DNA of 13,814 bases from a virus (Duplodnaviria > Heunggongvirae > Uroviricota > Caudoviricetes): the IMG/VR virus record IMGVR_UViG_2740892423_000026, positions 1 to 13,814 of that record. One strand, given 5' to 3'. Both the position numbers and the translations under genes were made by a program. Shown here piece after piece: positions 1 to 13,814 of the stretch; the stretch's first letter is position 1; every line of letters starts with the position of its first letter. The notes beneath the pieces were generated by a model. The model was not told where the DNA came from and searched no databases. It was given only the letters and a program-made list of their open reading frames with translations.

Positions 1-498
1 CGGCTGCAGGTGCAGAGTGATTTGCCGTGGTGGCTGGTCTGCCGGGGGACGATTCATAAGTTCCGCTGTGTGCCGCATCTCACCGGGCGGCGTTTTGAGC
101 ACGGGGTGACGGACTGTTACACGCTGTTCCGGGATGCTTATCATCTGGCGGGGATTGAGATGCCGGATTTTCATCGCGGGGATGACTGGTGGCGTCACGG
201 TCAGAATCTCTATCTTGACAATATGGAGGCGACTGGTTTTTACCGTGTCGCACTGACAGAGGCGCAGCCTGGCGACGTGCTGCTGTGCTGCTTTGGTTCA
301 TCGGTGCCGAATCATGCCGCCATTTACTGTGGTGACGGCGAGCTGCTGCACCATATTCCTGAACAACTGAGCAAACGAGAGAGGTATACCGACAAATGGC
401 AGCGACGCACACACTCCCTCTGGCGTCACCGGGCATGGCACGCATCTGCCTTTACGGGGATTTACAACGATTTGGCCGTCGCATCGACCTTCGTGTGA
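1..498 (+). CDS. K: Tail tip assembly protein K, 3' portion (5' end lies outside the window)
   Basis: Open in frame 1 from base 1. Translation (..PGDVLLCCFGSSVPNHAAIYCGDGELLHHIPEQLSKRERYTDKWQRRTHSLWRHRAW..) matches my recollection of the lambda gpK C-terminus. The 103-nt overlap with the next gene is the same as the lambda K/I overlap. Confidence 0.85.
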   Translation, partial: RLQVQSDLPWWLVCRGTIHKFRCVPHLTGRRFEHGVTDCYTLFRDAYHLAGIEMPDFHRGDDWWRHGQNLYLDNMEATGFYRVALTEAQPGDVLLCCFGSSVPNHAAIYCGDGELLHHIPEQLSKRERYTDKWQRRTHSLWRHRAWHASAFTGIYNDLAVASTFV

Positions 499-1043
499 AA
501 ACGGGGGCTGAAGCCATCCGGGCGCTGGCCACACAGCTTCCGTCGTTTCGCCAGAAACTGAATGAGGGCTGGTATCAGGTGCGCATTTCCGGGCGTGATG
601 CAGGCGAAAATGAATTATCTGCCCGTCTTAATGAACCGCTGGCAAATGGTGCCGTGATCCACGTCGTTCCGCGTCTGGCGGGTGCCAAAAGTGGCGGTGT
701 GTTTCAGGCGGTGCTGGGTGCGGCGCTGATTGCGGTGGCATGGTGGAACCCTGTTGGCTGGCTGGGGGCCGCGGCTGTATCGGGTCTGTATGCAGCAGGG
801 GCCAGTATGATCCTGGGTGGTGTGGCGCAGATGCTGGCACCGAAAGCCAGGACGCCCACGGCAGCCAGTACAGATAACGGCAAACAGAACACGTATTTCT
901 CGTCACTGGATAACATGGTTGCCCAGGGCAATGTTCTGCCTGTTCTGTACGGGGAAATGCGCGTGGGATCACGTGTGGTTTCTCAGGAGATCAGCACGGC
1001 AGACGAAGGGGATGGTGGTCAGGTTGTGGTGATTGGTCGCTGA
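396..1043 (+). CDS. I: Tail tip assembly protein I
   Basis: ATG at 396. N-terminus MAATHTLPLASPGMARICLYGDLQRFGRRIDLRVKTGAEAIRALATQL and C-terminus ..NTYFSSLDNMVAQGNVLPVLYGEMRVGSRVVSQEISTADEGDGGQVVVIGR are near-identical to lambda gpI as I recall it. Overlaps the K 3' end in another frame as in lambda. Confidence 0.9.
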   Translation: MAATHTLPLASPGMARICLYGDLQRFGRRIDLRVKTGAEAIRALATQLPSFRQKLNEGWYQVRISGRDAGENELSARLNEPLANGAVIHVVPRLAGAKSGGVFQAVLGAALIAVAWWNPVGWLGAAAVSGLYAAGASMILGGVAQMLAPKARTPTAASTDNGKQNTYFSSLDNMVAQGNVLPVLYGEMRVGSRVVSQEISTADEGDGGQVVVIGR

Positions 1044-1062
1044 TGCAAAACATTTTATGTGA

Positions 1063-1090
1063 AACCGCCTGCGGGCGGTTTTGTCGTTTA
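1063..1090 (+). terminator. Hairpin plus T-run in the I-J intergenic spacer (possible weak terminator or attenuator)
   Basis: AACCGCC-TGCG-GGCGGTT stem-loop followed by TTTTGTCGTTT, 14 nt before the J start codon. Confidence 0.35.
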
Positions 1091-1103
1091 TGGAGCGTGA
1101 CGA

Positions 1104-4100
1104 ATGGGTAAAGGCAGCAGTAAGGGGCATACCCCGCGCGAAGCGAAGGACAACCTGAAGTCCACGCAGCTGCTGAGTGTGATCGATGCCATCAGCGAAG
1201 GGCCGGTTGAAGGTCCGGTGGATGGATTAAAAAGCGTGCTGCTGAACAGTACGCCGGTGCTGGACAGTGAGGGGAATACCAATATATCCGGCGTCACGGT
1301 GGTGTTCCGGGCCGGTGAGCAGGAGCAGACACCGCCGGAGGGATTTGAATCCTCCGGCTCCGAGACGGTGCTCGGTACAGAAGTGAAATATGACACGCCG
1401 ATCACCCGGACCATCACGTCGGCAAACATTGACCGTCTGCGTTTTACTTTCGGCGTGCAGGCACTGGTGGAAACCACCTCAAAGGGGGACAGGAATCCAT
1501 CGGAAGTCCGCCTGCTGGTTCAGATACAACGTAACGGTGGCTGGGTGACGGAAAAAGACATCACCATTAAGGGCAAAACCACCTCGCAGTATCTGGCCTC
1601 GGTGGTGGTGGATAACCTGCCGCCGCGCCCGTTTAATATACGGATGCGCAGGATGACGCCGGACAGCACCACAGACCAGCTGCAGAACAAAACGCTCTGG
1701 TCGTCATACACCGAAATCATCGATGTGAAACAGTGCTACCGGAACACGGCACTGGTCGGCGTGCAGGTGGATTCGGAGCAGTTCGGCAGCCAGCAGGTGA
1801 GCCGTAATTATCATCTGCGCGGGCGCATTCTGCAGGTGCCGTCGAACTATAACCCGCAGACGCGGCAATACAGCGGTATCTGGGACGGAACGTTTAAGCC
1901 AGCATACAGCAACAACATGGCCTGGTGTCTGTGGGATATGCTGACCCATCCGCGCTACGGCATGGGGAAACGTCTTGGTGCGGCGGATGTGGACAAATGG
2001 GCGCTGTATGTCATCGGCCAGCATTGCGATCAGTCGGTGCCGGACGGTTTTGGCGGCACGGAGCCGCGCATCACCTGTAATGCGTACCTGACCACACAGC
2101 GCAAGGCGTGGGATGTGCTCAGTGATTTCTGCTCTGCGATGCGCTGTATGCCGGTATGGAACGGGCAGACGCTGACGTTCGTGCAGGACCGACCGTCGGA
2201 TAAGGTGTGGACCTATAACCGCAGTAATGTGGTGATGCCGGATGATGGTGCGCCGTTCCGCTACAGCTTCAGCGCCCTGAAGGACCGCCATAATGCCGTT
2301 GAGGTGAACTGGATTGACCCGAATAACGGCTGGGAGACGGCGACAGAGCTTGTGGAGGACACGCAGGCCATTGCCCGTTACGGTCGTAACGTCACGAAGA
2401 TGGATGCTTTTGGCTGTACCAGCCGGGGGCAGGCACACCGCGCCGGGCTGTGGCTGATTAAAACAGAACTGCTGGAAACGCAGACCGTGGACTTCAGCGT
2501 GGGCGCAGAAGGGCTTCGCCATGTGCCGGGTGATGTCATTGAAATCTGTGATGATGACTATGCCGGTATCAGCATCGGCGGGCGCGTGCTGGCGGTAAAC
2601 AGCCAGACCCGGACGCTGACGCTCGACCGTGAAATCACGCTGCCATCCTCCGGTACCACGCTGATAAGCCTGGTTGACGGTCAGGGTAATCCGGTCAGCG
2701 TGGAGGTCCAGTCCGTCACCGACGGCGTGAAGGTGAAAGTGAGCCGGGTTCCTGATGGTGTTGCAGAATACAGCGTGTGGGGGCTGAAGCTGCCGACGTT
2801 GCGCCAGCGCCTGTTCCGCTGTGTGAGTATCCGTGAGAACGATGACGGCACGTATGCCATCACCGCCGTGCAGCATGTACCGGAAAAAGAGGCCATCGTG
2901 GATAACGGGGCGCACTTTGACGGCGACCAGAGCGGCACGGTGAATGGTGTCACGCCGCCAGCGGTGCAGCACCTGACTGCCGAAGTCACCGCAGACAGCG
3001 GGGANNNNNNNNNNTCGCGCATCACCTGTAACGCTTACCTGACCACACAGCGTAAGGCGTGGGATGTGCTCAGTGATTTCTGCTCGGCGATGCGCTGTAT
3101 GCCGGTATGGAACGGGCAGACGCTGACGTTCGTGCAGGACCGACCATCAGATAAGGTGTGGACCTATAACCGCAGTAATGTGGTGATGCCGGATGATGGC
3201 GCGCCGTTCCGCTACAGCTTCAGCGCCCTGAAGGACCGCCATAATGCCGTTGAGGTGAACTGGATTGACCCGGATAACGGCTGGGAGACGGCGACAGAGC
3301 TTGTGGAGGATACGCAGGCCATTGCCCGTTACGGTCGTAATGTCACGAAGATGGATGCTTTTGGCTGTACCAGCCGGGGGCAGGCACACCGCGCCGGGCT
3401 GTGGCTGATTAAAACAGAACTGCTGGAAACGCAGANNNNNNNNNNGTATCAGGTACTGGCCCGCTGGGACACGCCGAAGGTGGTGAAGGGGGTGAGCTTT
3501 ATGCTTCGCCTGACCGTGGCAGCGGACGACGGCAGTGAGCGGCTGGTCAGCACGGCCCGGACGACGGAAACCACATACCGCTTCAGGCAACTGGCGCTGG
3601 GAAATTACAGGCTGACAGTCCGGGCGGTAAATGCATGGGGACAGCAGGGCGATCCGGCATCGGTATTGTTCCGGATCGCCGCACCGGCAGCGCCGTCGCG
3701 GATTGAGCTGACGCCGGGCTATTTTCAGATAACCGCCACGCCGCATCTTGCGGTTTATGATCCGACGGTACAGTTTGAGTTCTGGTTCTCGGAAAAGCGG
3801 ATTGCGGATATCAGGCAGGTTGAAACCACAGCCCGCTATCTTGGTACGGCGCTGTACTGGATAGCCGCCAGTATCAATATCAAACCGGGCCATGATTATT
3901 ACTTTTATATCCGCAGTGTGAACACCGTAGGCAAATCGGCATTTGTGGAGGCCGTCGGTCGGGCGAGCGATGATGCATCCGGCTATCTGGATTTTTTCAA
4001 AGGCGAGATAGGGAAAACCCATCTGGCTCAGGAGCTGTGGACGCAGATTGATAACGGTCAGCTTGCGCCTGACCTGGCTGAAATCAGGACGTCCATTACG

Positions 4101-5042
4101 GATGTCAGCAATGAAATCACGCAGACCGTCAATAAGAAACTGGAAGACCAGAGTGCGGCAATTCAGCAGATACAGAAGGTTCAGGTTGATACAAATAATA
4201 ACCTGAACAGCATGTGGGCTGTGAAGCTGCAGCAGATGCAGGACGGACGCCTTTATATCGCGGGTATTGGTGCCGGTATTGAGAACACCCCTGACGGCAT
4301 GCAGAGTCAGGTGCTGCTGGCGGCGGACAGGATTGCGATGGTTAATCCTGCGAATGGCAACACAAAACCGATGTTTGTTGGTCAGGGCGATCAGATATTC
4401 ATGAACGACGTGTTCCTGAAACGCCTGACGGCCCCCACCATTACCAGCGGTGGAAATCCACCGGCATTTTCCCTGACACCGGACGGAAAGCTGACCGCTA
4501 AAAATGCGGATATCAGTGGCAGTGTGAATGCGAACGCCGGGACGCTCAACAATGTCACGGTAAATGAAAACTGTACGATTAAGGGCATGCTGGAGGCGAC
4601 TCAGGTCAGAGGTGACTTCGTTAAAGCTGTATCCAAATCATTTCCGAAACAGGCTGGTACGTGGGGTAACACGGAAACACCAGACGGGACGGTTACAGTC
4701 ACCATCAGCGATGATCATAACTTTGACCGTCAAATCATTATTCCGCCCATTATCTTTAACGGAATAGCGTATAGCGATCCGGGAAGTGGTAATAACCCGG
4801 GAGGTACAAGATACACGGGTTATGGTTTTGAAGTTCGCAAAAACGGTGTATTAATCGCATCCAGAGAAACTAAAGGGGCCATTCCCGGTAGCTACAGTGC
4901 GGTTATTGATATGCCGAGTGGCAGGGGAAGCGTCACTCTGGAGTTTAAGGTTTTCCATAAAGGCAATCAGTGGGCAGGTAATATCACCGACTGTACGGTG
5001 ATTGTGACCAAAAAAGCTGCTTCCGGCATCAGTATTCGTTGA
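1104..5042 (+). CDS. J: Tail tip / host-specificity protein J (central fibre); reading frame as assembled includes a 441-bp N-flanked duplicated block
   Basis: ATG at 1104 with GGAG upstream. N-terminus [34 protein letters not shown] and most of the length are near-identical to lambda gpJ as recalled. The last ~300 aa (after ..[25 protein letters not shown]) diverge from lambda but keep the conserved ..[46 protein letters not shown].. block. Confidence 0.9.
3005..3445. other. N10 + 421-bp near-copy of J segment ~2064..2484 + N10; probable scaffolding or assembly artefact
   Basis: Two runs of exactly 10 N (3005..3014, 3436..3445) bracket a block that repeats 2065..2484 at a constant offset of 951 nt with about 10 point differences. 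The flanks GGGGA|GTATCAGG read ..ADSG-E-YQVL.. when joined directly, as in lambda J. Block length 441 = 3 x 147, so the frame is kept. Confidence 0.7.
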
Positions 5043-5063
5043 AGTTGTTATAACCCATATAAG

Positions 5064-5090
5064 GGCACCAGAAATGGTGCCTTTTTTATT
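5064..5090 (+). terminator. Rho-independent terminator downstream of J
   Basis: GGCACCA-GAAA-TGGTGCC perfect 7-bp stem followed by TTTTTTATT, 22 nt after the J stop codon. Confidence 0.7.
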
Positions 5091-5111
5091 GCAGAAAAGC
5101 GAGAGGTAATT

Positions 5112-5711
5112 ATGCGTAAAGTTTGTGCAGCCATTTTGTCCGCAGCCATTTGTCTGGCCGTATCCGGTGCGCCTGCATGGGCATCTGAACATCAGTCCAC
5201 GCTGAGCGCGGGGTATCTTCATGCCCGGACCAACGTTCCCGGCAGCGATGATCTGAACGGGATTAACGTGAAATACCGTTATGAGTTTACGGACACACTG
5301 GGGCTGGTGACGTCATTCAGCTATGCAGGAGACAAGAATCGCCAGCTTACCCGTTACAGCGATACCCGCTGGCATGAAGATTCCGTTCGTAACCGCTGGT
5401 TCAGCGTGATGGCGGGGCCGTCTGTGCGCGTGAATGAATGGTTCAGCGCGTATGCGATGGCGGGTGTGGCTTACAGCCGTATTTCTACTTTCTCCGGGGA
5501 TTATCTCCGCGTAACTGACAACAAGGGGAAAACGCACGAAGTGCTGACCGGAAGTGATGATGGTCGCCACAGCAACACGTCTCTGGCGTGGGGGGCTGGC
5601 GTGCAGTTTAACCCGACCGAATCCGTGGCCATTGATATTGCTTATGAAGGCTCCGGCAGTGGCGACTGGCGCACTGACGGTTTCATCGTGGGTGTCGGTT
5701 ATAAATTCTGA
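5112..5711 (+). CDS. lom: Outer-membrane protein Lom (Ail/Lom family beta-barrel; lysogenic-conversion gene)
   Basis: ATG at 5112 preceded by GAGAGG. Signal peptide [25 protein letters not shown]-terminus ..[27 protein letters not shown] identical to lambda Lom as recalled; ends in aromatic F typical of OM beta-barrels. Confidence 0.9.
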
Positions 5712-5737
5712 TTAGCCAGGTAACACAGTGTTATGAC

Positions 5738-5765
5738 AGCCCGCCGGTTCAGGCGGGCTTTTTTG
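5738..5765 (+). terminator. Rho-independent terminator downstream of lom
   Basis: AGCCCGCC-GGTTCA-GGCGGGCT 8-bp stem followed by TTTTTT. Confidence 0.75.
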
Positions 5766-5775
5766 TGGGGTGAAT

Positions 5776-8700
5776 ATGGCAGTAAAGATTTCAGGTGTAC
5801 TGAAAGACGGCGCAGGTAAACCGGTACAGAACTGCACAATCCAGCTGAAAGCAAAACGTAACAGCACCACGGTGGTGGCGAACACGGTGGCCTCAGAAAA
5901 TCCGGATGAAGCCGGGCGTTACAGCATGGACGTTGAGTACGGTCAGTACAGCGTTATTCTGTTGGTGGAAGGCTTCCCGCCATCGCATGCCGGGACCATC
6001 ACCGTGTATGAAGACTCACAACCGGGTACGCTGAATGATTTTCTCGGTGCCATGACGGAGGATGATGTCCGTCCGGAGGCACTGCGCCGCTTTGAACTGA
6101 TGGTGGAAGAGGTGGCGTGTAACGCGTCCGCAGTGGCGCAGAACACAGCAGCCGCGAAGAAGTCAGCCAGCGATGCCAGCACATCAGCCCGTGAGGCGGC
6201 AACCCATGCGACTGATGCTGCAGGCTCAGCACGTGCAGCCAGCACGTCAGCCGGACAGGCCGCTTCGTCGGCTCAGTCAGCGTCTTCCAGCGCAGGAACG
6301 GCATCAGCAAAGGCCACTGAAGCATCAAAAAGTGCTGCCGCTGCAGAGTCTTCAAAAAGCGCGGCAGCCACCAGTGCCGGTGCAGCGAAAACGTCAGAAA
6401 CGAATGCCGCAGCATCACAAAAATCTGCGGCCACTTCTGCATCCACCGCGACCACGAAAGCGTCAGAAGCTGCCACCTCAGCCCGGGATGCGTCGGCTTC
6501 AAAAGTGGCGGCAAAATCATCAGAAACGAGCGCAGCCTCGAGCGCCGGCAGTGCAGCTTCCTCGGCAACGGCGGCAGGAAATTCCGCGAAGGCCGCAAAA
6601 ACGTCTGAGACGAATGCGGATAACAGCGCACAGGCGGCAGCAGNNNNNNNNNNTTCCGCGACAGCAGCCAAAAAATCAGAAACCAACGCGAAAAATAGTG
6701 AGTCAGCAGCAAAGGTCAGCGAAACCAACGCTAAAGCGTCAGAGAACAAGGCGAAAGAATATCTCGACAAGGTCGGGGGACTCGTCAGCCCGATGACGCA
6801 ATACGATTGGCCTGTTGTTACTGCTAGTGAGTCTCTTTACATCAAGATCGCGAAACTTTCCGATCCTGGAACCAGCAGAAGTCATGTAACGCTAATGGTT
6901 ACTAACGCTGGTAACTACGGCTCCCCTTACGGAAACATTGACTTTATCGAGATCTCGGCGCGCGGTCTGCCTTCTTTGCTTAGTGCGGATAATGTTTCTC
7001 GTCATCTGAGTATACGCCGCTTAGGGTCAACCGGGCTGACCGATAACAACCAGATGCGTTACGGCCTGGTTAAAGGTGACGGCTTTATTGAGGTTTGGGC
7101 ATTCCAGGGTGCGTTTATTAACGACGCAAAGGTTGCGGTGCTGGCGCAGACAACACTAAACACAGAATTATACATTCCAGACGGATTTGTTAAGCAAACC
7201 GCCGCGCCTTCTGGATATATTGAAGGCAACGTTGTAAGGATTTACGACCAGGTAAACAAGCCGACTAAAGCAGATTTGGGTCTTTCTAATGCTATGCTTA
7301 CAGGCGCTTTCGGTCTTGGCGGTAGCGGGATATCAACAAACGGCAAGATGAGCGATGTAGAGATCTTAAAAGCTCTGCGTGACAAAGGTGGTCATTTCTG
7401 GCGCGGTGATAAGCCGACCGGAAGCACGGCGACCATTTATAGCCACGGTTCTGGTATATTCTCGCGGTGCGGCGATACGTGGTCAGCGATCAATATCGAC
7501 TACTCAACCGCGAAGATTAAGATCTATGCCGGCAACGATGCCCGGCTTAACAACGGGACTTTTAGCGTCAATGAGCTATACGGCTCGGCAAACAAGCCGT
7601 CGAAATCGGATGTTGGACTTGGCAACGTAACGAACGATGCGCAGGTAAAAAAAACCGGCGATACAATGACCGGTGACTTGACAATCAAAAAAGGTACACC
7701 GTCAGTCTTCCTGCGGGCAGACAGTGGAGTCACCGCTTTGCGGTTTTATACTGGCGATAACACAGAGCGCGGCATAATCTATGCTGGTCCTAACACTGAT
7801 TCGCTTGGCGAAGTTCGCATCAGGGCAAAGACAGCAGGGGGGACATCAGGAGGGGATCTTGTTGTTCGTCACGACGGGAGGGTTGAAGTCCGTGATCTCA
7901 CAGTAGCGTATAAAATTAAAAGCAGAACGATTGAGATTGCAAATACCGACACTGACTCATCGGCAACTACGCTAAGCATCTATGGAGTACAGCACACGCC
8001 GTTGGTTTTAACGCGTTCTGGTTCTTCTGAAAATGTGTCCATTGGGTTTAAGTTAGACAACATGAACCCAAAGTATCTTGGAATTGATACTAATGGGGAT
8101 CTGGCTTTTGGTGAGAGTCCTGATCAGAAACAAAACAGCAAATTGATCACGCAAGCGAAACTCGACAAGGGATTAACGATTGGTGGTCAACTGGCTTTCA
8201 AAGGTACGACAGCGTTTTCAGCCGTTGCTACGTTCAGTGCCGGGATAGCAGGAGCCATCGAGCCGGAAAACATTGACGGCCAGACGGTTAATCTTAACAA
8301 CCTGACCATCATCAAGTCAGATGCCGGGGCAGTTAAATACTATATTTGTCCATCCTCTGCAGGTGGTGCAAATATCACCAACAAGCCTGACGGCGTAACA
8401 GGTAACTTTTTGCTCCGTGTTGAATCGACTCGTAAGGTTAGGGATTCAGATTATGCGAACATGCAAACGCTGATTAACAGCGACACAAAACGTATATACG
8501 TTCGCTTTGTTGTTAATGGAAACTGGACAGCGTGGAGTCAGGTTGTTGTTTCCGGATGGAATCAGGATGTAACCGTCAGGTCGTTAACCTCGACGACTCC
8601 ATCAAAATTAGGTGGCGGGCGGATTGATGTGCTTGGAAGTACGTCAGATTATGGCAGCATGAATTGTACCGTTCGTGGTGTTGATAGCACTGGAACCAAT

Positions 8701-9543
8701 TCGGCGTGGTCGGTAGGCACATCAGAAAGCACAGGCAAAATGTTGTTCCTGAAAAACCACAGAAGCAGCGCTCAAGTGCTGTTAAATGGCGATGATGGAG
8801 CGGTTCAACTACTAAGTGGCACTGTTAACGGTGCTACAGCGCAGGCGCTAACCATCAACAAAGATGAGGTTAACTCAACTGCCGATTTAGTAATTAGAAA
8901 ACAAACAGGGACTGGCAATCGTTTTGCTTTACTTAATTCAGGTAATTCAGAACTACCAGTTAGTATCAGGGTGTGGGGTTCCAGTACTCGACAAAACGTT
9001 TTTGAGGTTGGCACGTCTGCTGCGTATCTGTTTTATGCGCAAAAAACAACAGACGGGCAAAACCTTACTGTAAACGGAAGTGTTAACTGCACCACACTGA
9101 ATCAGTCATCAGACCGCAGACTGAAAGAAAATATCGAGATTATCGATAACGCGACTGACGCAATCCGCAAAATTAATGGATACACGTACACGCTCAAGGA
9201 GAATGGGGCACATTGCGCCGGGGTTATAGCCCAGGAAGTTGAAGAGGCCATCCCGGAGGCCGTTGGTTCATTCATCCATTACGGTGAAGAGTTGCAAGGC
9301 CCGACCGTTGACGGCAACGAGCTACGCGAAGAAACGCGCTATCTTAATGTTGACTACGCCGCCGTGACGGGTTTACTTGTTCAGGTCGCCCGTGAAACAG
9401 ATGATCGCGTTACCGCGCTGGAAGAGGAAAACACAACGCTACGTCAAAATCTGGCAACAGCAGGCACCCGGATCACCACTCTGGAAAATCAGGTAAGCGA
9501 ACTGGTTGCACTTGTCCGGCAGTTAACAGGAAGCGAACATTGA
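5776..9543 (+). CDS. stf: Mosaic side tail fiber: lambda Stf-like N-terminal anchor, Ala/Ser-rich repeat shaft (contains a 10-N gap), divergent distal region, C-terminal self-cleaving intramolecular chaperone domain (peptidase S74-like)
   Basis: ATG at 5776 gives MAVKISGVLKDGAGKPVQNCTIQLKAKRNSTTVVANTV.., matching the lambda Stf N-terminus (the ORF track begins at a GTG two codons upstream). Shaft is long A/S/T/K repeats (AAKTSETNA.. units). Distal part carries fibre motifs NKPTKADLGLSNA, NKPSKSDVGLGNVTNDAQ and GDTMTGDLTIKKG. C-terminus has SSDRRLKENIEII...INGYTYTLKENG..GVIAQEVEEAIPEAV followed by a coiled-coil (TALEEENTTLRQNLATAGTRITTLENQVSELVALVRQL), the signature of the endosialidase / T5 L-shaped-fibre chaperone domain. 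Confidence 0.85.
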   Translation: MAVKISGVLKDGAGKPVQNCTIQLKAKRNSTTVVANTVASENPDEAGRYSMDVEYGQYSVILLVEGFPPSHAGTITVYEDSQPGTLNDFLGAMTEDDVRPEALRRFELMVEEVACNASAVAQNTAAAKKSASDASTSAREAATHATDAAGSARAASTSAGQAASSAQSASSSAGTASAKATEASKSAAAAESSKSAAATSAGAAKTSETNAAASQKSAATSASTATTKASEAATSARDASASKVAAKSSETSAASSAGSAASSATAAGNSAKAAKTSETNADNSAQAAAXXXXSATAAKKSETNAKNSESAAKVSETNAKASENKAKEYLDKVGGLVSPMTQYDWPVVTASESLYIKIAKLSDPGTSRSHVTLMVTNAGNYGSPYGNIDFIEISARGLPSLLSADNVSRHLSIRRLGSTGLTDNNQMRYGLVKGDGFIEVWAFQGAFINDAKVAVLAQTTLNTELYIPDGFVKQTAAPSGYIEGNVVRIYDQVNKPTKADLGLSNAMLTGAFGLGGSGISTNGKMSDVEILKALRDKGGHFWRGDKPTGSTATIYSHGSGIFSRCGDTWSAINIDYSTAKIKIYAGNDARLNNGTFSVNELYGSANKPSKSDVGLGNVTNDAQVKKTGDTMTGDLTIKKGTPSVFLRADSGVTALRFYTGDNTERGIIYAGPNTDSLGEVRIRAKTAGGTSGGDLVVRHDGRVEVRDLTVAYKIKSRTIEIANTDTDSSATTLSIYGVQHTPLVLTRSGSSENVSIGFKLDNMNPKYLGIDTNGDLAFGESPDQKQNSKLITQAKLDKGLTIGGQLAFKGTTAFSAVATFSAGIAGAIEPENIDGQTVNLNNLTIIKSDAGAVKYYICPSSAGGANITNKPDGVTGNFLLRVESTRKVRDSDYANMQTLINSDTKRIYVRFVVNGNWTAWSQVVVSGWNQDVTVRSLTSTTPSKLGGGRIDVLGSTSDYGSMNCTVRGVDSTGTNSAWSVGTSESTGKMLFLKNHRSSAQVLLNGDDGAVQLLSGTVNGATAQALTINKDEVNSTADLVIRKQTGTGNRFALLNSGNSELPVSIRVWGSSTRQNVFEVGTSAAYLFYAQKTTDGQNLTVNGSVNCTTLNQSSDRRLKENIEIIDNATDAIRKINGYTYTLKENGAHCAGVIAQEVEEAIPEAVGSFIHYGEELQGPTVDGNELREETRYLNVDYAAVTGLLVQVARETDDRVTALEEENTTLRQNLATAGTRITTLENQVSELVALVRQLTGSEH
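6644..6653. other. Assembly gap (10 N) inside the Ala/Ser-rich repeat region of the tail fiber gene
   Basis: Run of exactly 10 N in low-complexity repeat DNA; true length of the repeat shaft is unknown. Confidence 0.9.
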
Positions 9544-9591
9544 TATCCTTCAAGCCCTGAAGGAGGCTGTTCCTGGTACGTTCAGACTGTT

Positions 9592-9726
9592 GTTGAGCTG
9601 GAAATCGCAACGGAGGAAGAAACCTTGTTGCTGGAAGCCTGGAAAAAGTATCGGGTGTTGCTGAACCGTGTTGATACATCAACTGCACCGGATATTGAGT
9701 GGCCAGAAGAACCAGACACCGTGTAA
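9592..9726 (+). pseudogene. tfa: 3' remnant of tail fiber assembly gene tfa (no start codon; about 44 C-terminal codons)
   Basis: Translation [44 protein letters not shown] closely matches the lambda Tfa C-terminus (..[37 protein letters not shown]..) as recalled. It lies in frame directly after the fiber TGA stop, with no ATG/GTG or RBS of its own. Confidence 0.6.
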
Positions 9727-9728
9727 GC

Positions 9729-9780
9729 AAAAAAGAAAAACCGCAGACACGACGTATGCATGACGTGCTGCGGTTTATGC
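9729..9780. terminator. Bidirectional terminator-like hairpin (repeat copy A) between the tfa remnant and the convergent GIY-YIG gene
   Basis: AAAAAGAAAAA, then CCGCAGACACGACGT..ACGTGCTGCGG imperfect inverted repeat, then TTTATGC. A-tract upstream and T-rich tract downstream let it act on both strands. Confidence 0.55.
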
Positions 9781-9795
9781 TTATCACTTAAAGAC

Positions 9796-10665
<870 letters not shown>

Positions 10666-10753
10666 CTAATTCTTTGAATTTACATAGTAAAAAAAGATAC
10701 TTTTCCTCATAGTGTGAGCTAATTTTATGTTTCGTTTGATGATCGGACCGGTC

Positions 10754-10794
10754 TCAAAAACCGCAGGCACGTTGTATGCAAGAACGTGCTGTGG
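10754..10794 (-). terminator. Terminator-like hairpin (repeat copy B), related to copy A at 9729..9780
   Basis: TCAAAAA then CCGCAGGCACGTT-GTATGCAAG-AACGTGCTGTGG. On the - strand the hairpin is followed by TTTTTGAG. About 33 of 39 positions are shared with copy A by eye. Confidence 0.45.
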
Positions 10795-10957
10795 CTGGCT
10801 GGTGAACTTCCAATAGTGCGAATATTGAATGATGTCCAGCCGTTACCGTTTTTACGTGTTTATTAGTGAACAAACCACTCGTCAGCAGACTCCTAGGTAT
10901 GAACAAAAGTTTTAGCTGAAACTCTATCTGTGGTGCGCGTAACAGAAGTGTAATAAA

Positions 10958-10976
10958 AGGCCCTAGAAAAGGGCCT
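10958..10976 (-). terminator. Short hairpin downstream of the 47-aa ORF (weak terminator candidate)
   Basis: AGGCCC-TAGAAAA-GGGCCT stem-loop; on the - strand it is followed by TTTATTAC. Confidence 0.35.
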
Positions 10977-10990
10977 AAGATTAGCAAAGA

Positions 10991-11134
10991 TTATCCTCGA
11001 TACTTAGAGGCAGGAATTTTGATAGGAAAGGCTGCCAAGCCTTTTTGACGAGCAAAGATCCGTTTACCTTTGACCGTAATAAAAGGACGGTAAATTGTGA
11101 TGTATTCCTCAGATACAGCTTTTTCAATGGTCAT
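10991..11134 (-). CDS. Hypothetical small protein (47 aa), below the ORF-track length cutoff
   Basis: ATG at 11134 (- strand) to TAA at 10991: MTIEKAVSEEYITIYRPFITVKGKRIFARQKGLAAFPIKIPASKYRG. Weak AGGT Shine-Dalgarno; hairpin immediately downstream. Basic and non-hydrophobic; no motif I recognise. Confidence 0.3.
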   Translation of the reverse strand: MTIEKAVSEEYITIYRPFITVKGKRIFARQKGLAAFPIKIPASKYRG

Positions 11135-11160
11135 ATCGTGTTACCTGTAAAGTTTCGCTG

Positions 11161-11188
11161 TTGACAAAACCTAAGGTAAGCGTATACT
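11161..11188 (+). promoter_or_regulatory. Near-consensus sigma70 promoter (TTGACA-16 nt-TATACT) firing toward the ImmA 3' end
   Basis: TTGACA at 11161..11166, 16-nt spacer, TATACT at 11183..11188. No + strand ORF follows; a terminator lies about 45 nt downstream. Confidence 0.5.
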
Positions 11189-11194
11189 CACAAC

Positions 11195-11258
11195 CGCCAA
11201 GTTTTTCGTATTTGCTTACGATAGGAGAAGCCAGCGACAGCGGTTCGCTGGCTTTTTC
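11195..11258 (+). ncRNA. Candidate small RNA (about 60-65 nt) defined by a consensus promoter and an intrinsic terminator
   Basis: Predicted +1 about 7 nt after the -10. Transcript ends at GCCAGCG-ACAGCGGTT-CGCTGGC hairpin (11230..11252) followed by TTTTT. No start codon inside. Lies opposite the ImmA 3' end / intergenic region of the - strand operon. Confidence 0.35.
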
Positions 11259-11259
11259 G

Positions 11260-11793
11260 TTATCTTTTTGCATTTTTTCTCATCCAGGTTTCAGCCGCTT
11301 GTTGACTGACACCAAATGTTTTGCTTATATCTTCAACAGTCATTGTGGGCAAAACTAGTCTTGAGTCAATTAAGAAGTGGCTTGCAAAAACATCTGCTTG
11401 CCATTCGCTGTCTTCATAGATTTTATGCCCTCCACTAGTCTTATTACGTGCATAGATACTTTGATTGCGATGCATGACTAAATGACCAAGTTCATGCGCA
11501 ACAGTGAATCTCGCATGGTTCTCACCATTGCACACTGCATCGTAAACAGATCGCTGTAAAACAATTTTGTTCTTATCTGGATAAGTCACTGCATAGCGTT
11601 TGGGCAGTTCATGATCTTCAACAATTTCTAGCTCAATGCTTTCTGAGGCCATAAGACCTTCTAGTAATACATCCAGTCTCAGATATGTGTGATTTGATAT
11701 CTGAAGAACGTCTCTCAGACGATGAGCGTATGATTTAATCATGCTGGTGCTGAGAGGTGAAACGCGATGGCCAAGTTCTCGTTTCGCAATCAT
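11260..11793 (-). CDS. ImmA/IrrE-family Zn-metallopeptidase (COG2856-like)
   Basis: HEXXH motif in ..RFTVAHELGHLVMHRNQ... AAGGA Shine-Dalgarno 7 nt before the ATG; start lies 3 nt after the stop of the upstream XRE gene (TGA-ATA-ATG), typical of the coupled XRE/ImmA pair. Confidence 0.8.
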   Translation of the reverse strand: MIAKRELGHRVSPLSTSMIKSYAHRLRDVLQISNHTYLRLDVLLEGLMASESIELEIVEDHELPKRYAVTYPDKNKIVLQRSVYDAVCNGENHARFTVAHELGHLVMHRNQSIYARNKTSGGHKIYEDSEWQADVFASHFLIDSRLVLPTMTVEDISKTFGVSQQAAETWMRKNAKR

Positions 11794-11796
11794 TAT

Positions 11797-12147
11797 TCAG
11801 TCCTTTAACATTTTATTAAGCTTATCGAGTTGCTCTGGACTCAGGTCCTTAAATTTACGAGCAAAAACAAGCATTAGTTCTTTGTTCTGCTCATTTGCAT
11901 CCGACATATCAACCTTAATGGACGGTTGAGAAATCTCTGCCTGTTTCTTGAGATTGATGATGTCTTGTCCGCTAAGCTCAAAAGTTGTTGCAATCGTATT
12001 TACTAATGAGTCCGGTATAGCTCTTTTGCCTAATTCAATGGCGGATAAGTAAGCCGAACTAACGCCTAACAGATCAGCCATATTTTTGAGCACCATACCC
12101 CGGTCTATTCTCATTTTTCTGAGAGTCTTACCAAAGCTAGTTACCAT
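11797..12147 (-). CDS. XRE-family helix-turn-helix transcriptional regulator (ImmR/repressor-like)
   Basis: HTH_3-type helix-turn-helix ..MVLKNMADLLGVSSAYLSAIELGKRAIPDSLVNTIATTFELS... Start placed at ATG 12147 because it is preceded by AGGAGG with a 6-nt spacer (the ORF track starts 9 codons earlier without an RBS). Confidence 0.8.
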   Translation of the reverse strand: MVTSFGKTLRKMRIDRGMVLKNMADLLGVSSAYLSAIELGKRAIPDSLVNTIATTFELSGQDIINLKKQAEISQPSIKVDMSDANEQNKELMLVFARKFKDLSPEQLDKLNKMLKD

Positions 12148-12176
12148 GTTGCGCCTCCTACAATCCATGCTCACTT

Positions 12177-12205
12177 ATACTAAAAACCAAACTCAAGATC
12201 AACAA
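12177..12205 (-). promoter_or_regulatory. Candidate promoter for the XRE-ImmA operon (TTGTTG-17 nt-TAGTAT on the - strand)
   Basis: Reverse complement of 12200..12205 is TTGTTG, 17-nt spacer, reverse complement of 12177..12182 is TAGTAT, about 30 nt upstream of the XRE start. TGTAG-type repeats at 12209..12215, 12244..12249 and 12293..12298 lie just upstream as candidate operator half-sites. Confidence 0.3.
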
Positions 12206-12429
12206 AAATTGTAGAATTTTTTAATCTCAGCGTGTGATGACAATCTACATAAAATCATGAAATGGTGCAAGGCGTAACTTAAAAAATACCACATGTAGTG
12301 TCAATTTTATGTGCTGTATGGATATATGGGGTTGGTAAACTTTTGCTCTTTTGTGCTCCTCAGCTATGTGGTTGTTTGATTTTTGAACATCTTGTGGAAC
12401 ATAAATTGGGTTTATGCTTTTCCCTTTCG

Positions 12430-12457
12430 GTGACAACATGTTTATAGGATGTATAAT
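12430..12457 (+). promoter_or_regulatory. Candidate sigma70 promoter for the Bro-N gene (GTGACA-16 nt-TATAAT)
   Basis: GTGACA at 12430..12435, 16-nt spacer, TATAAT at 12452..12457, followed by AGGAGG (12468..12473) and the GTG start 7 nt later. Confidence 0.45.
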
Positions 12458-12480
12458 CCATAAAAAAAGGAGGGGATGGC

Positions 12481-13242
12481 GTGCAAAAGAATTTGTTACA
12501 ATTATGCTACGAAGAAGAGTGTGGAGAAAATTATATCCGTAGCATGAATGAAAAAGGGCAGATTTTTGTTTCACTTTCAGATGTGCTAAGAACGCTTTCT
12601 GCTGAGAACAGAAAACTGGATGGAAAGACTTCTCAAAGCTTGCTCACTGTAATAAGAGCGGTAATAAAAACTTTAGATCCAGATGAGTTTAGGAATGTTT
12701 CTCTTGTCGTGGATGGTGAAACTATCTCTGAGGTATTTCTTACTGAACCAGGTCTATATAGAGTACTTGCTCAGGATACTACTGCTGCGGGGAAAAAATT
12801 CCAACGCTGGCTTTTTCATCAGGTCCTTCCGTCTATTCGTGAATTTGGTGTATATCCTCCGCCACCTAAACAAGAACGTTCAGAACTGAGTGCTTTTGCT
12901 AACAGTCTGCAGCAGACGGTTCAAGCATTGGTAATGGAAATAGAAAAACGTGAAGAGTTAGAAAGTAGAGTAAACCAAGTTGAACTAAAAGTTAACTCGT
13001 TAGAAAGTTTAAGAGACTTGTCTCAGTTCAGAAGTGTTCCTCAACGATTGATGGAGTTAGGTTTGGATACCTATTCAGTTGAGGAACTTTGGCAATGGTG
13101 TGAAAAATTGCGTAGTGAACGTGGAGCAGAAAGAATTAAGTGCCCCTCCGGATTGAATATAAATTCTTGCTATCCATTAGCTTTGGTTGATGAAGCTATC
13201 GCTATATACCAGAAAGTAGTTGAGGCAAGAACACGTCAGTGA
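12481..13242 (+). CDS. Bro-N domain protein (antirepressor-like; N-terminal Bro-N DNA-binding domain, central coiled-coil, C-terminal domain of unknown function)
   Basis: GTG start with a strong AGGAGG RBS. Bro-N signature ..FVSLSDVLRTL...LTEPGLYRVLAQDTTAAGKKFQRWLFHQVLPSIREFGVY.. matches the conserved F-x-x-W-L/V-x-x-x-V-L-P-S-I-R-x-x-G-x-Y core of Bro-N / Ant N-terminal domains. Divergent from the XRE-ImmA operon. Confidence 0.75.
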   Translation: MQKNLLQLCYEEECGENYIRSMNEKGQIFVSLSDVLRTLSAENRKLDGKTSQSLLTVIRAVIKTLDPDEFRNVSLVVDGETISEVFLTEPGLYRVLAQDTTAAGKKFQRWLFHQVLPSIREFGVYPPPPKQERSELSAFANSLQQTVQALVMEIEKREELESRVNQVELKVNSLESLRDLSQFRSVPQRLMELGLDTYSVEELWQWCEKLRSERGAERIKCPSGLNINSCYPLALVDEAIAIYQKVVEARTRQ

Positions 13243-13261
13243 GCTTGAGGGAAAAAAACAA

Positions 13262-13289
13262 AAAAGCCCGCATAAGCGGGCTTTTTTGT
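13262..13289. terminator. Strong bidirectional rho-independent terminator (after the Bro-N gene; also faces ssrA)
   Basis: AAAAAAACAAAAAA, then GCCCGC-ATAA-GCGGGC, then TTTTTT. The A-run on one side and T-run on the other give hairpin+U-tract on both strands. Confidence 0.75.
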
Positions 13290-13412
13290 CACTCGGGAGC
13301 CGCGGCTCCTTTGCGTATCCTTTTTTGTCTCCTCACCGTCTGGTCGGTGTCCTGCTGAGACTGCTAACTTCCTGTTTTTATTGGTGTTGTCCTTACACCG
13401 TCCAATCATGAT

Positions 13413-13775
13413 TGGTGGAGCTGGCGGGAGTTGAACCCGCGTCCGAAATTCCTACATCCTCGGTACTACATGCTTAGTCAGTCTTTACATTCGCTTGCCA
13501 GCTGCGGACGGACACGCCACTAACAAACTAGCCTGATTAAGTTTTAACGCTTCAACCCCAGGCAGGGCTTCCACGCGATCTCTTTTGGGTTTGACCTCTC
13601 TTGATCCCCGTCCTAAGAGCGGAGGCTAGGGAGAGAGGGCTCTAAGCAGGTTATTAAGCTGCTAAAGCGTAGTTTTCGTCGTTTGCGACTATTTTTTGCG
13701 GCTTTTTACGAGGCCAACCGCCCCTCGGCATGCACCTTGGGTTTCGCAAATCCCGTCGAATCCAGAATCAGCCCC
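13413..13775 (-). ncRNA. ssrA: tmRNA (SsrA), complete 363-nt gene
   Basis: Reverse complement begins GGGGCTGATTCTGGATTCGACGGG.. and ends ..GGTTCAACTCCCGCCAGCTCCACCA. It contains the tag reading frame GCAAACGACGAAAACTACGCTTTAGCAGCTTAA (ANDENYALAA*) at 13654..13686. Matches the E. coli ssrA sequence as I recall it. Confidence 0.95.
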
Positions 13776-13814
13776 AATGTGTAAAGGTAAGTATACCAGA
13801 TTTATGAGCGCCAT

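Follow-up and report, generated by a model that had tools for sequence, protein, structure and literature searches.

How can a lambda-type side tail fibre gene come to end in a chaperone domain and to be followed by a piece of tfa that has no start of its own? The question is raised by the stf gene of the DNA stretch studied here, which comprises 13,814 nucleotides (nt; positions 1 to 13,814 of IMG/VR record IMGVR_UViG_2740892423_000026, a virus of the Caudoviricetes) and is called the window throughout. A first-pass annotation had proposed that recombination replaced the distal part of Stf, together with the 5' part of tfa, by a fibre cassette containing a chaperone, and the domains, the breakpoints and the tfa remnant described below all support this proposal. 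In our judgement the gene is very probably a mosaic but functional-looking side tail fibre gene, composed of a lambda-like N-terminus and a foreign fibre with an S74 chaperone, and trailed by a vestige of tfa.

A lambda-type fibre with a foreign distal part

The open reading frame (ORF) of stf extends over 5770/5776..9543, and from the ATG at 5776 its product begins with MAVKISG, a start identical to that of lambda Stf. The gene follows J (1104-5042) and lom (5112-5711), an order that is syntenic with lambda, phage Ayreon and the finished genome HN68. Homology to lambda DNA forms a left block at 5584-6617 (87% identity, blastn), and the protein is 86% identical to lambda Stf across amino acids (aa) 1-284, with a full-length match to PF08400 at its N-terminus (Table 1), as expected if attachment to the virion is conserved. 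The lambda-like part is thus more than double the first 120 or so residues originally assigned to it. Over the remaining ~970 residues no similarity to lambda Stf was found, in line with the earlier description of the distal two-thirds as unrelated, and the lambda distal half (orf-314) has no counterpart in the window Stf. The N-terminal domain and the position after J and lom are both those of a lambda-type Stf, and the lambda-like, Tfa-dependent distal receptor-binding region is missing. Judged from its sequence, the gene is a lambda-type Stf by N-terminus and position, not by tip.

The fraction of guanine plus cytosine (GC) falls from 0.60 at 6001-6600 to 0.46-0.50 at 6600-9000 (about 0.47 overall) and is 0.44-0.50 in the distal region (6769-9108), so the shift toward AT-rich DNA that had been placed at roughly 6780 is indeed observed, after about 6600. 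The distal region is itself a mosaic. Its first ~617 aa share 54% aa identity with Klebsiella phage fibres, and near the C-terminus tblastn matches of 45-52% identity were obtained to Escherichia coli (E. coli) phage fibres, e.g., those of JLBYU43, vB_EcoS_VAH1, damhaus and JenP1; Klebsiella phage proteins annotated as 'L-shaped tail fiber' match at 34-39% identity (tblastn). A shaft motif like that of T4 gp34 was found by a PDB search directly before the predicted cleavage site. No depolymerase domain was detected in Stf by Pfam, and neither Stf nor the tfa remnant was assigned to a family by an NCBIfam scan, which also did not reproduce the 'pyocin knob' label given to relatives by the Prokaryotic Genome Annotation Pipeline (PGAP).

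The last 144 aa of the fibre form the S74 domain that had been predicted at the C-terminus. The Peptidase_S74 profile (PF13884, 'chaperone of endosialidase') matches aa 1112-1163 with 60.1 bits against a Pfam cutoff of 22, covering profile positions 1-57 of 58, and the three marks on which the prediction had leaned are all present in the translation, namely the serine-lysine site SSDRRLKENI, GVIAQEVEEAIPEAV, and a C-terminal coiled coil, seen as a helix with a heptad-like pattern. The putative catalytic dyad has the spacing S1112-D-R-R-L-K1117, with the lysine five residues downstream of the serine at the domain boundary, and both residues are invariant in 20 homologues (57-96% identity). The site SSDRRLKENI aligns with SSDRRIKKDI of S16 gp37 (6f45, E=2e-9) and weakly with the MYRF domain (7dc3, E=0.04). 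A long helix is predicted at aa ~1194-1251, where the predicted local distance difference test score (pLDDT) is ~54-84 by 10-residue block, the best-scoring part of the chaperone region, and coiled-coil matches to P22 gp26 and APC were also obtained. By its profile match, its Ser/Lys motif and its C-terminal location, this terminus has the sequence features of the S74 chaperone family.

Among known systems, T5 pb1 is likewise a long fibre with a C-terminal intramolecular chaperone (133 aa, compared with 144 aa here) and a Ser/Lys dyad five residues apart, and in pb1 a trimeric coiled coil is present as well and the chain cleaves itself once folded (PMC4690869). Its scissile Ser1264 is activated by Lys1269, in the same i/i+5 spacing; cleavage requires a correctly folded trimer, and folding is thought to begin at the C-terminal coiled coil (PMC4690869). 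The window Stf differs from pb1 in its lambda-type N-terminal attachment, in having no pb1 match in the PDB, and in that its cleavage is predicted. The C-terminal chaperone of K1F endosialidase is the founding member of PF13884, and the window C-terminus, which matches the family at 60 bits, has the same catalytic motif, whereas its passenger is a fibre and not a sialidase tailspike. The best sequence match with a solved structure is the T2/S16-type long tail fibre protein gp37 (6f45), of which only the ~70-residue chaperone core aligns and which, unlike the window Stf, is a myovirus distal half-fibre working with the gp38 adhesin.

Based on analogy with T5 pb1 and K1F endosialidase, the following division of labor may be proposed. 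The first 284 residues (the PF08400 domain and the Ala/Ser-rich rod) would attach the fibre to the tail, and the next ~830 residues would make up the foreign shaft and receptor-binding region. In the last 144 residues, the intramolecular chaperone, the C-terminal helices would trimerise first and template the distal fibre, and the Ser1112/Lys1117 dyad would cut the chain before Ser1112, yielding a 15.9 kDa fragment and a mature subunit of ~115 kDa. With folding help built into the polypeptide, a separate Tfa protein would be unnecessary. We infer self-cleavage at Ser1112, trimerisation, independence from Tfa in vivo, and a receptor different from that of lambda; the host range may be altered as well.

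The same contiguous architecture is found in complete genomes and in cultured phages. The Stf proteins of Ayreon (MF807953), mEp460 (JQ182728) and PhiR70_1 (PV340577) share with the window the J-lom-stf position, the N-terminal domain and the S74 C-terminus, followed by the same junction of stop codon, linker and tfa remnant and by the same hairpin. Identity to the window is 84.5% for the DNA and 76% for the distal protein in Ayreon and reaches up to 99% in E. coli prophages; the central receptor-binding regions of mEp460 and PhiR70_1 differ from that of the window. RefSeq names the E. coli prophage relatives 'pyocin knob domain-containing S74 family peptidase' or 'prophage tail fiber N-terminal domain and S74 family ...'. 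The orthologues are intact ORFs of 1259 aa in HN68, 1252 aa in Ayreon, 1200 aa in mEp460 and 828 aa in PhiR70_1, and in each of the five lineages examined the reading frame of stf stays open for 3.8 kb. When the window is compared with Ayreon, the ratio of nonsynonymous to synonymous substitution rates (dN/dS) is 0.13-0.31 for every segment of Stf, with 0.17 for the chaperone domain, which indicates that stf is maintained by purifying selection.

Several results weigh against the reading of a functional mosaic fibre. A monomer of aa 901-1255 modeled with AlphaFold2 from a 20-sequence alignment has a mean pLDDT of 56, with values below 50 over most of the chaperone core, and a Foldseek search of the PDB with this model gave no match at E<=0.001 and nothing below E=0.03. 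Sequence and profile searches of the PDB reached S16 gp37, T4 gp34, MYRF and coiled coils, not T5 pb1 or K1F. The N-terminal and distal halves of the window Stf are joined only across a scaffold gap. Furthermore, side fibres are dispensable for plaque formation by lambda, and lambda PaPa is without them (PMC11990801), so the viability of Ayreon and mEp460 is not proof that the fibre assembles.

Alternatively, the gene could be a decaying relic of a cryptic prophage, with no working fibre and an S74 domain of no relevance. Such a relic would agree with the dispensability of side fibres in lambda, with the fact that the window shows only part of a prophage, and with the splitting of the gene by PGAP into a pseudogene and a partial coding sequence (CDS) in several genomes. 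However, decay is difficult to reconcile with an ORF intact over 3.8 kb in all five lineages, with a dN/dS of 0.13-0.31 that includes the chaperone domain, with invariant catalytic Ser and Lys, and with the presence of the same gene in plaque-forming phages, and the PGAP split is contradicted by the continuous ORF. A relic is thus considered unlikely, and a functional fibre with its own chaperone remains the favored interpretation.

Table 1. Features of the stf locus and the adjoining prophage end, in window coordinates
Feature	Position	Strand	Extent or content	Basis
stf, side tail fibre gene	5776..9543	+	1255 aa as written; stop TGA 9541-9543	ORF list, translation, Pfam
Stf N-terminal virion-attachment domain	5776..6177	+	aa 1-134	PF08400 1-134/134, E=1.2e-70
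Ala/Ser-rich proximal rod	6178..6768	+	aa 135-331	translation, blastn breakpoints, alignment
Scaffold gap inside the Ala/Ser-rich repeats of stf	6644..6653		10 N; 22 nt in relatives	
Foreign distal shaft and receptor-binding region	6769..9108	+	aa 332-1111	lower GC, no lambda Stf similarity
S74 intramolecular chaperone domain	9109..9540	+	aa 1112-1255, 15.9 kDa; C-terminal coiled-coil helix follows	PF13884
Predicted scissile/catalytic Ser1112	9109-9111	+		motif alignment
Predicted catalytic Lys1117	9124-9126	+		motif alignment
37-nt linker of the incoming cassette	9544..9580	+	contains GAAGGAGG; no usable start codon	alignment
tfa 3' remnant, start-less pseudogene fragment	9581..9726	+	lambda Tfa residues 147-191, variant tail, TAA stop	
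Conserved hairpin after tfa, probably a bidirectional terminator	9738..9776		T-run on minus strand	folding
ssrA, transfer-messenger RNA (tmRNA) gene	13413-13775	-		ARAGORN; Rfam 296 bits

The tfa remnant and the spread of its junction

Behind the stf stop codon and a short linker lies the 3' end of tfa. By blastn, 9581-9704 is 91% identical to lambda 22412-22535, which lies inside tfa. When lambda Tfa was used as a tblastn query, only residues 147-191 of 194 aligned in the window, at 9580-9714, in agreement with the start-less, lambda-like tfa end that had been described at 9592..9726; and the 60 codons after the stf stop match the Caudo_TAP profile (PF02413) at positions 87-130 of 131 (E=3e-20, Pfam). 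No ORF of at least 40 aa beginning with ATG, GTG or TTG was found over the remnant on the plus strand, and PGAP labels the orthologous remnant in HN68 and in GF47, a second finished genome, as 'incomplete; missing N-terminus'. The window contains no intact tfa. One that might reappear once the draft was corrected was looked for in the finished HN68 and GF47 sequences, which have the same remnant and no intact tfa, and the complete Ayreon genome holds no tfa-like sequence besides the remnant. As read from its sequence, the remnant is not a functional Tfa, which would have a complete ORF and an N-terminal fibre-binding domain.

In Tfa proteins the N-terminal domain, which binds the fibre, is variable, whereas the helical C-terminal domain, which trimerises, is conserved (PMC9608196); by that account the lost codons 1-146 are the fibre-specific half of the gene, and the piece kept is part of the conserved trimerisation domain. 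Compared with lambda Stf and Tfa, the side tail fibre proteins of Ur-lambda, the fibre gene occupies the same locus, its product shows 86% identity over the first 284 aa, and the last 45 tfa codons and the hairpin are kept, whereas the orf-314 distal region and Tfa residues 1-146 are absent and the chaperone function appears to have moved into the fibre polypeptide. The hairpin sits after the intact tfa in lambda as well. Its free energy of folding on the two strands is -23.4 and -24.7 kcal/mol (z -4.9 and -4.5); it was missed by a simple terminator scan and recovered by folding. A hairpin in the linker folds no better than shuffled sequences.

The distribution of the junction was examined in 5426 complete E. 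coli genomes. Of these, 301 cover 80% or more of the 4-kb region as a whole, 804 match a 201-nt probe that spans stop codon and junction, and 803 contain the chaperone 3' end by itself, so this chaperone end practically never occurs without the tfa stub behind it. The window, HN68, Ayreon, mEp460 and PhiR70_1 all have the same 37-nt linker and the same join at 9580/9581, and in a sampled listing of 2446 matching genomes no ordinary tfa allele extends the homology upstream of 9581. Taken together, the identical linker and join, the matching counts and the absence of upstream tfa homology point to a single old event common to ~15% of complete E. coli genomes. The recombination proposed by the first-pass annotation therefore appears real, but it is old and shared (804 of 5426 genomes) and not specific to the strain. 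An ancestral illegitimate join would have created the junction, and the replacement would have removed tfa codons 1-146 along with the old fibre tip; what is left after the 37-nt linker would be 146 nt of non-coding vestige (codons 147-191 and the tail).

Alternatively, the junction between chaperone and tfa could have arisen several times, by recurrent recombination at tfa codon 147. Other rearrangements do leave tfa 3' remnants, e.g., after effector genes in O157:H7, and crossovers are likely to fall in the ultra-conserved 3' core of tfa. Recurrence is nonetheless very unlikely, given that the linker and the exact join at 9580/9581 are the same in five sequences and that the count of the chaperone 3' end (803) coincides with that of the junction (804).

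After a single origin of the junction, its later spread and diversification would have proceeded by homologous recombination, with ~960 nt of the stf 5' region as the left arm and, as the right arm, the stretch that begins with the C-terminal coiled coil of the chaperone and includes the tfa remnant (about 9300-9700). Between lineages, 9300-9700 is 94-100% identical, compared with only 64-86% for 9050-9300. The same flanks enclose three central cassettes, i.e., the window/Ayreon type, the mEp460 type (in which 6737-8575 differs) and the PhiR70_1 type (in which 6737-9100 differs); by blastn breakpoints, homology to both mEp460 and PhiR70_1 stops at 6737. HN68 and PhiR70_1 carry a different allele patch in the stub, with EEEKALLAAW as the alternative, and the remnant tails and the downstream DNA also differ, being lambda-like in Ayreon as opposed to the window. 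A 64-nt core of tfa (9641-9704) is present in 4541 of the 5426 genomes, at 7724 places and mostly at identities of at least 95%. From these patterns we infer that 9300-9700 may behave as a homology arm for cassette exchange. The patterns also fit a stub at which crossovers with intact tfa genes are frequent, which would explain its undecayed look without translation. Counting against the homology-arm role, it draws on conservation patterns in a handful of sequences, not on population-wide breakpoints.

A broader proposal is that the population retains the tfa stub and the near-invariant chaperone coiled coil for an exchange system in which they serve as right-hand homology arm; such a system would swap whole receptor-binding cassettes and switch fibres between Tfa dependence and self-chaperoning, with the thousands of tfa copies in co-resident prophages that share the 64-nt core as its partners. 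We regard this as a tentative possibility that is on balance doubtful.

Two side observations concern the same end of tfa. The 64-nt block is near-identical in lambda and in all five remnant-bearing sequences, far above the conservation of the surrounding DNA. A further tfa 3' remnant, this one with an internal stop, lies in O157:H7 at Z1826 (L010, 4433-4585), where it is preceded by espW and espM2, two type III effector genes, and followed by a DinI-like gene and ssrA. Unrelated cargo replacements thus repeatedly have the tfa 3' end as their right-hand scar.

If translation mattered after all, TGA read-through or re-initiation would have to produce a small Tfa C-terminal helix protein that aids trimerisation. 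The remnant is in frame with stf, free of stops and indels in five lineages and highly conserved in sequence; PHROG families of 78-88 aa match the same C-terminal segment of Tfa, and GAAGGAGG stands upstream of the remnant. On the other hand, no in-frame ATG, GTG or TTG lies near this Shine-Dalgarno-like motif and there is no ORF of at least 40 aa, the fibre-binding N-terminal domain is absent, the comparable O157:H7 remnant carries an internal stop, and patchwise recombination with intact tfa alleles, seen in the form of allele blocks, accounts for the conservation. Because any read-through extension would be discarded with the cleaved chaperone domain, the frame shared with stf, to which the first-pass annotation had drawn attention, is incidental and has no evident meaning. 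We therefore give a functional fragment very little probability, slightly less than recurrent origin, and take the remnant as a non-coding vestige.

Continuity of the fusion in a draft scaffold

The window holds three runs of exactly 10 N. The run in stf begins 27 nt after the end of the lambda homology and interrupts a gene that is uninterrupted in the relatives; with this gap filled, the true Stf would probably be 1259 aa, 4 aa longer than written. The two runs in J belong to a segment, 3005-3446, that consists of N10, 421 nt and N10. The 421 nt duplicate window positions 2065-2484 at 97.6% identity, the flanks 3004 and 3447 abut in lambda, and the segment looks like a mis-scaffolded repeat contig. 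J is inflated by it to 1312 aa (1159 aa in HN68), with a spurious second Phage-tail_3 domain, and the J ORF stays open across the misplaced segment by coincidence of length. Since the N10 pair in J encloses a misplaced duplicate, the N runs are suggested to be scaffold joins.

HN68 aligns to the window as one piece over 5025-10779 (97.6% identity, blastn), and its stf is uninterrupted, with 1261 codons counted from a GTG start and 1259 aa counted from the ATG. Complete genomes (HN68) and the phages Ayreon, mEp460 and PhiR70_1 have the fusion as a single ORF without interruption. It was first read from the window, which with a 10-N gap at the fusion zone cannot prove it alone, but the complete genomes and the phages bear it out. 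That the scaffolder joined an Stf N-terminal piece and an S74 fibre from different loci at the 10-N gap is the least probable explanation of all and is rejected, because, even though the gap sits 27 nt after the end of the lambda homology, the same scaffold has a demonstrable mis-join in J, and most E. coli genomes contain the stf 5' region more than once (median 3 places per genome), HN68 aligns as one piece, the identical architecture is uninterrupted in finished genomes and in complete phage genomes with intact orthologues, and at least 80% of the whole 4 kb is covered in 301 genomes.

The fusion being continuous, its annotation in relatives deserves a comment. In HN68 and GF47 (6001-9780 of the extracts), PGAP splits the continuous 1261-codon stf into a pseudogene with 'missing C-terminus' and a downstream CDS. 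The split is an annotation artefact at the Ala/Ser-rich repeats, and it explains many 'partial' protein records of the family.

Surroundings and significance of the locus

As the right end of a lambdoid prophage, the window carries an NlpC/P60 K-like gene, I, J, lom and stf on the plus strand, followed by minus-strand cargo genes and then by ssrA; the tmRNA is the sole match of an Rfam scan. The prophage is integrated at or next to ssrA, as in HN68, GF47 and O157:H7 Z1826. The gene right after the tfa stub (9796-10620, minus strand) matches the PD-T4-3 anti-phage defence protein over the full length (PADLOC, E=9e-140), and its product carries a LEM-3-like GIY-YIG nuclease domain. An M78/ImmA-like peptidase gene (11260-11793, minus strand) is preceded by a gene for an XRE-type helix-turn-helix (HTH) protein (11797-12174, minus strand), the two resembling the CapP/CapH regulator pair, and a gene with a Bro-N domain lies opposite (12481-13242, plus strand). 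In HN68 and GF47, a type II restriction-modification pair occupies the same slot as the peptidase and HTH genes of the window. Different genes in the same slot mark this as a variable island of cargo and defence genes between the tail fibre locus and the prophage end.

Alternation of related phages between a separate Tfa and a built-in chaperone has been described (PMC11990801). A literature search on side tail fibres, tfa and S74 chaperones found no paper on this junction; PMC9836094 mentions mEp460, not its fibre. The arrangement is ordinary lambdoid mosaicism, and its parts are already annotated in RefSeq, as an S74 family peptidase and an incomplete tail fiber assembly protein. Present in cultured phages as well as in ~15% of complete E. 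coli genomes, and covered by RefSeq labels, it opens no new question. It is nevertheless a clean natural example of a tail fibre changing its folding strategy, in which the tip and the fibre-specific half of the chaperone gene gave way jointly to a fibre with a chaperone of its own. Fusions are tolerated at the natural junctions (about aa 284-330 and the chaperone domain), knowledge that may be of use in predicting host range and in designing chimeric lambda-type fibres.

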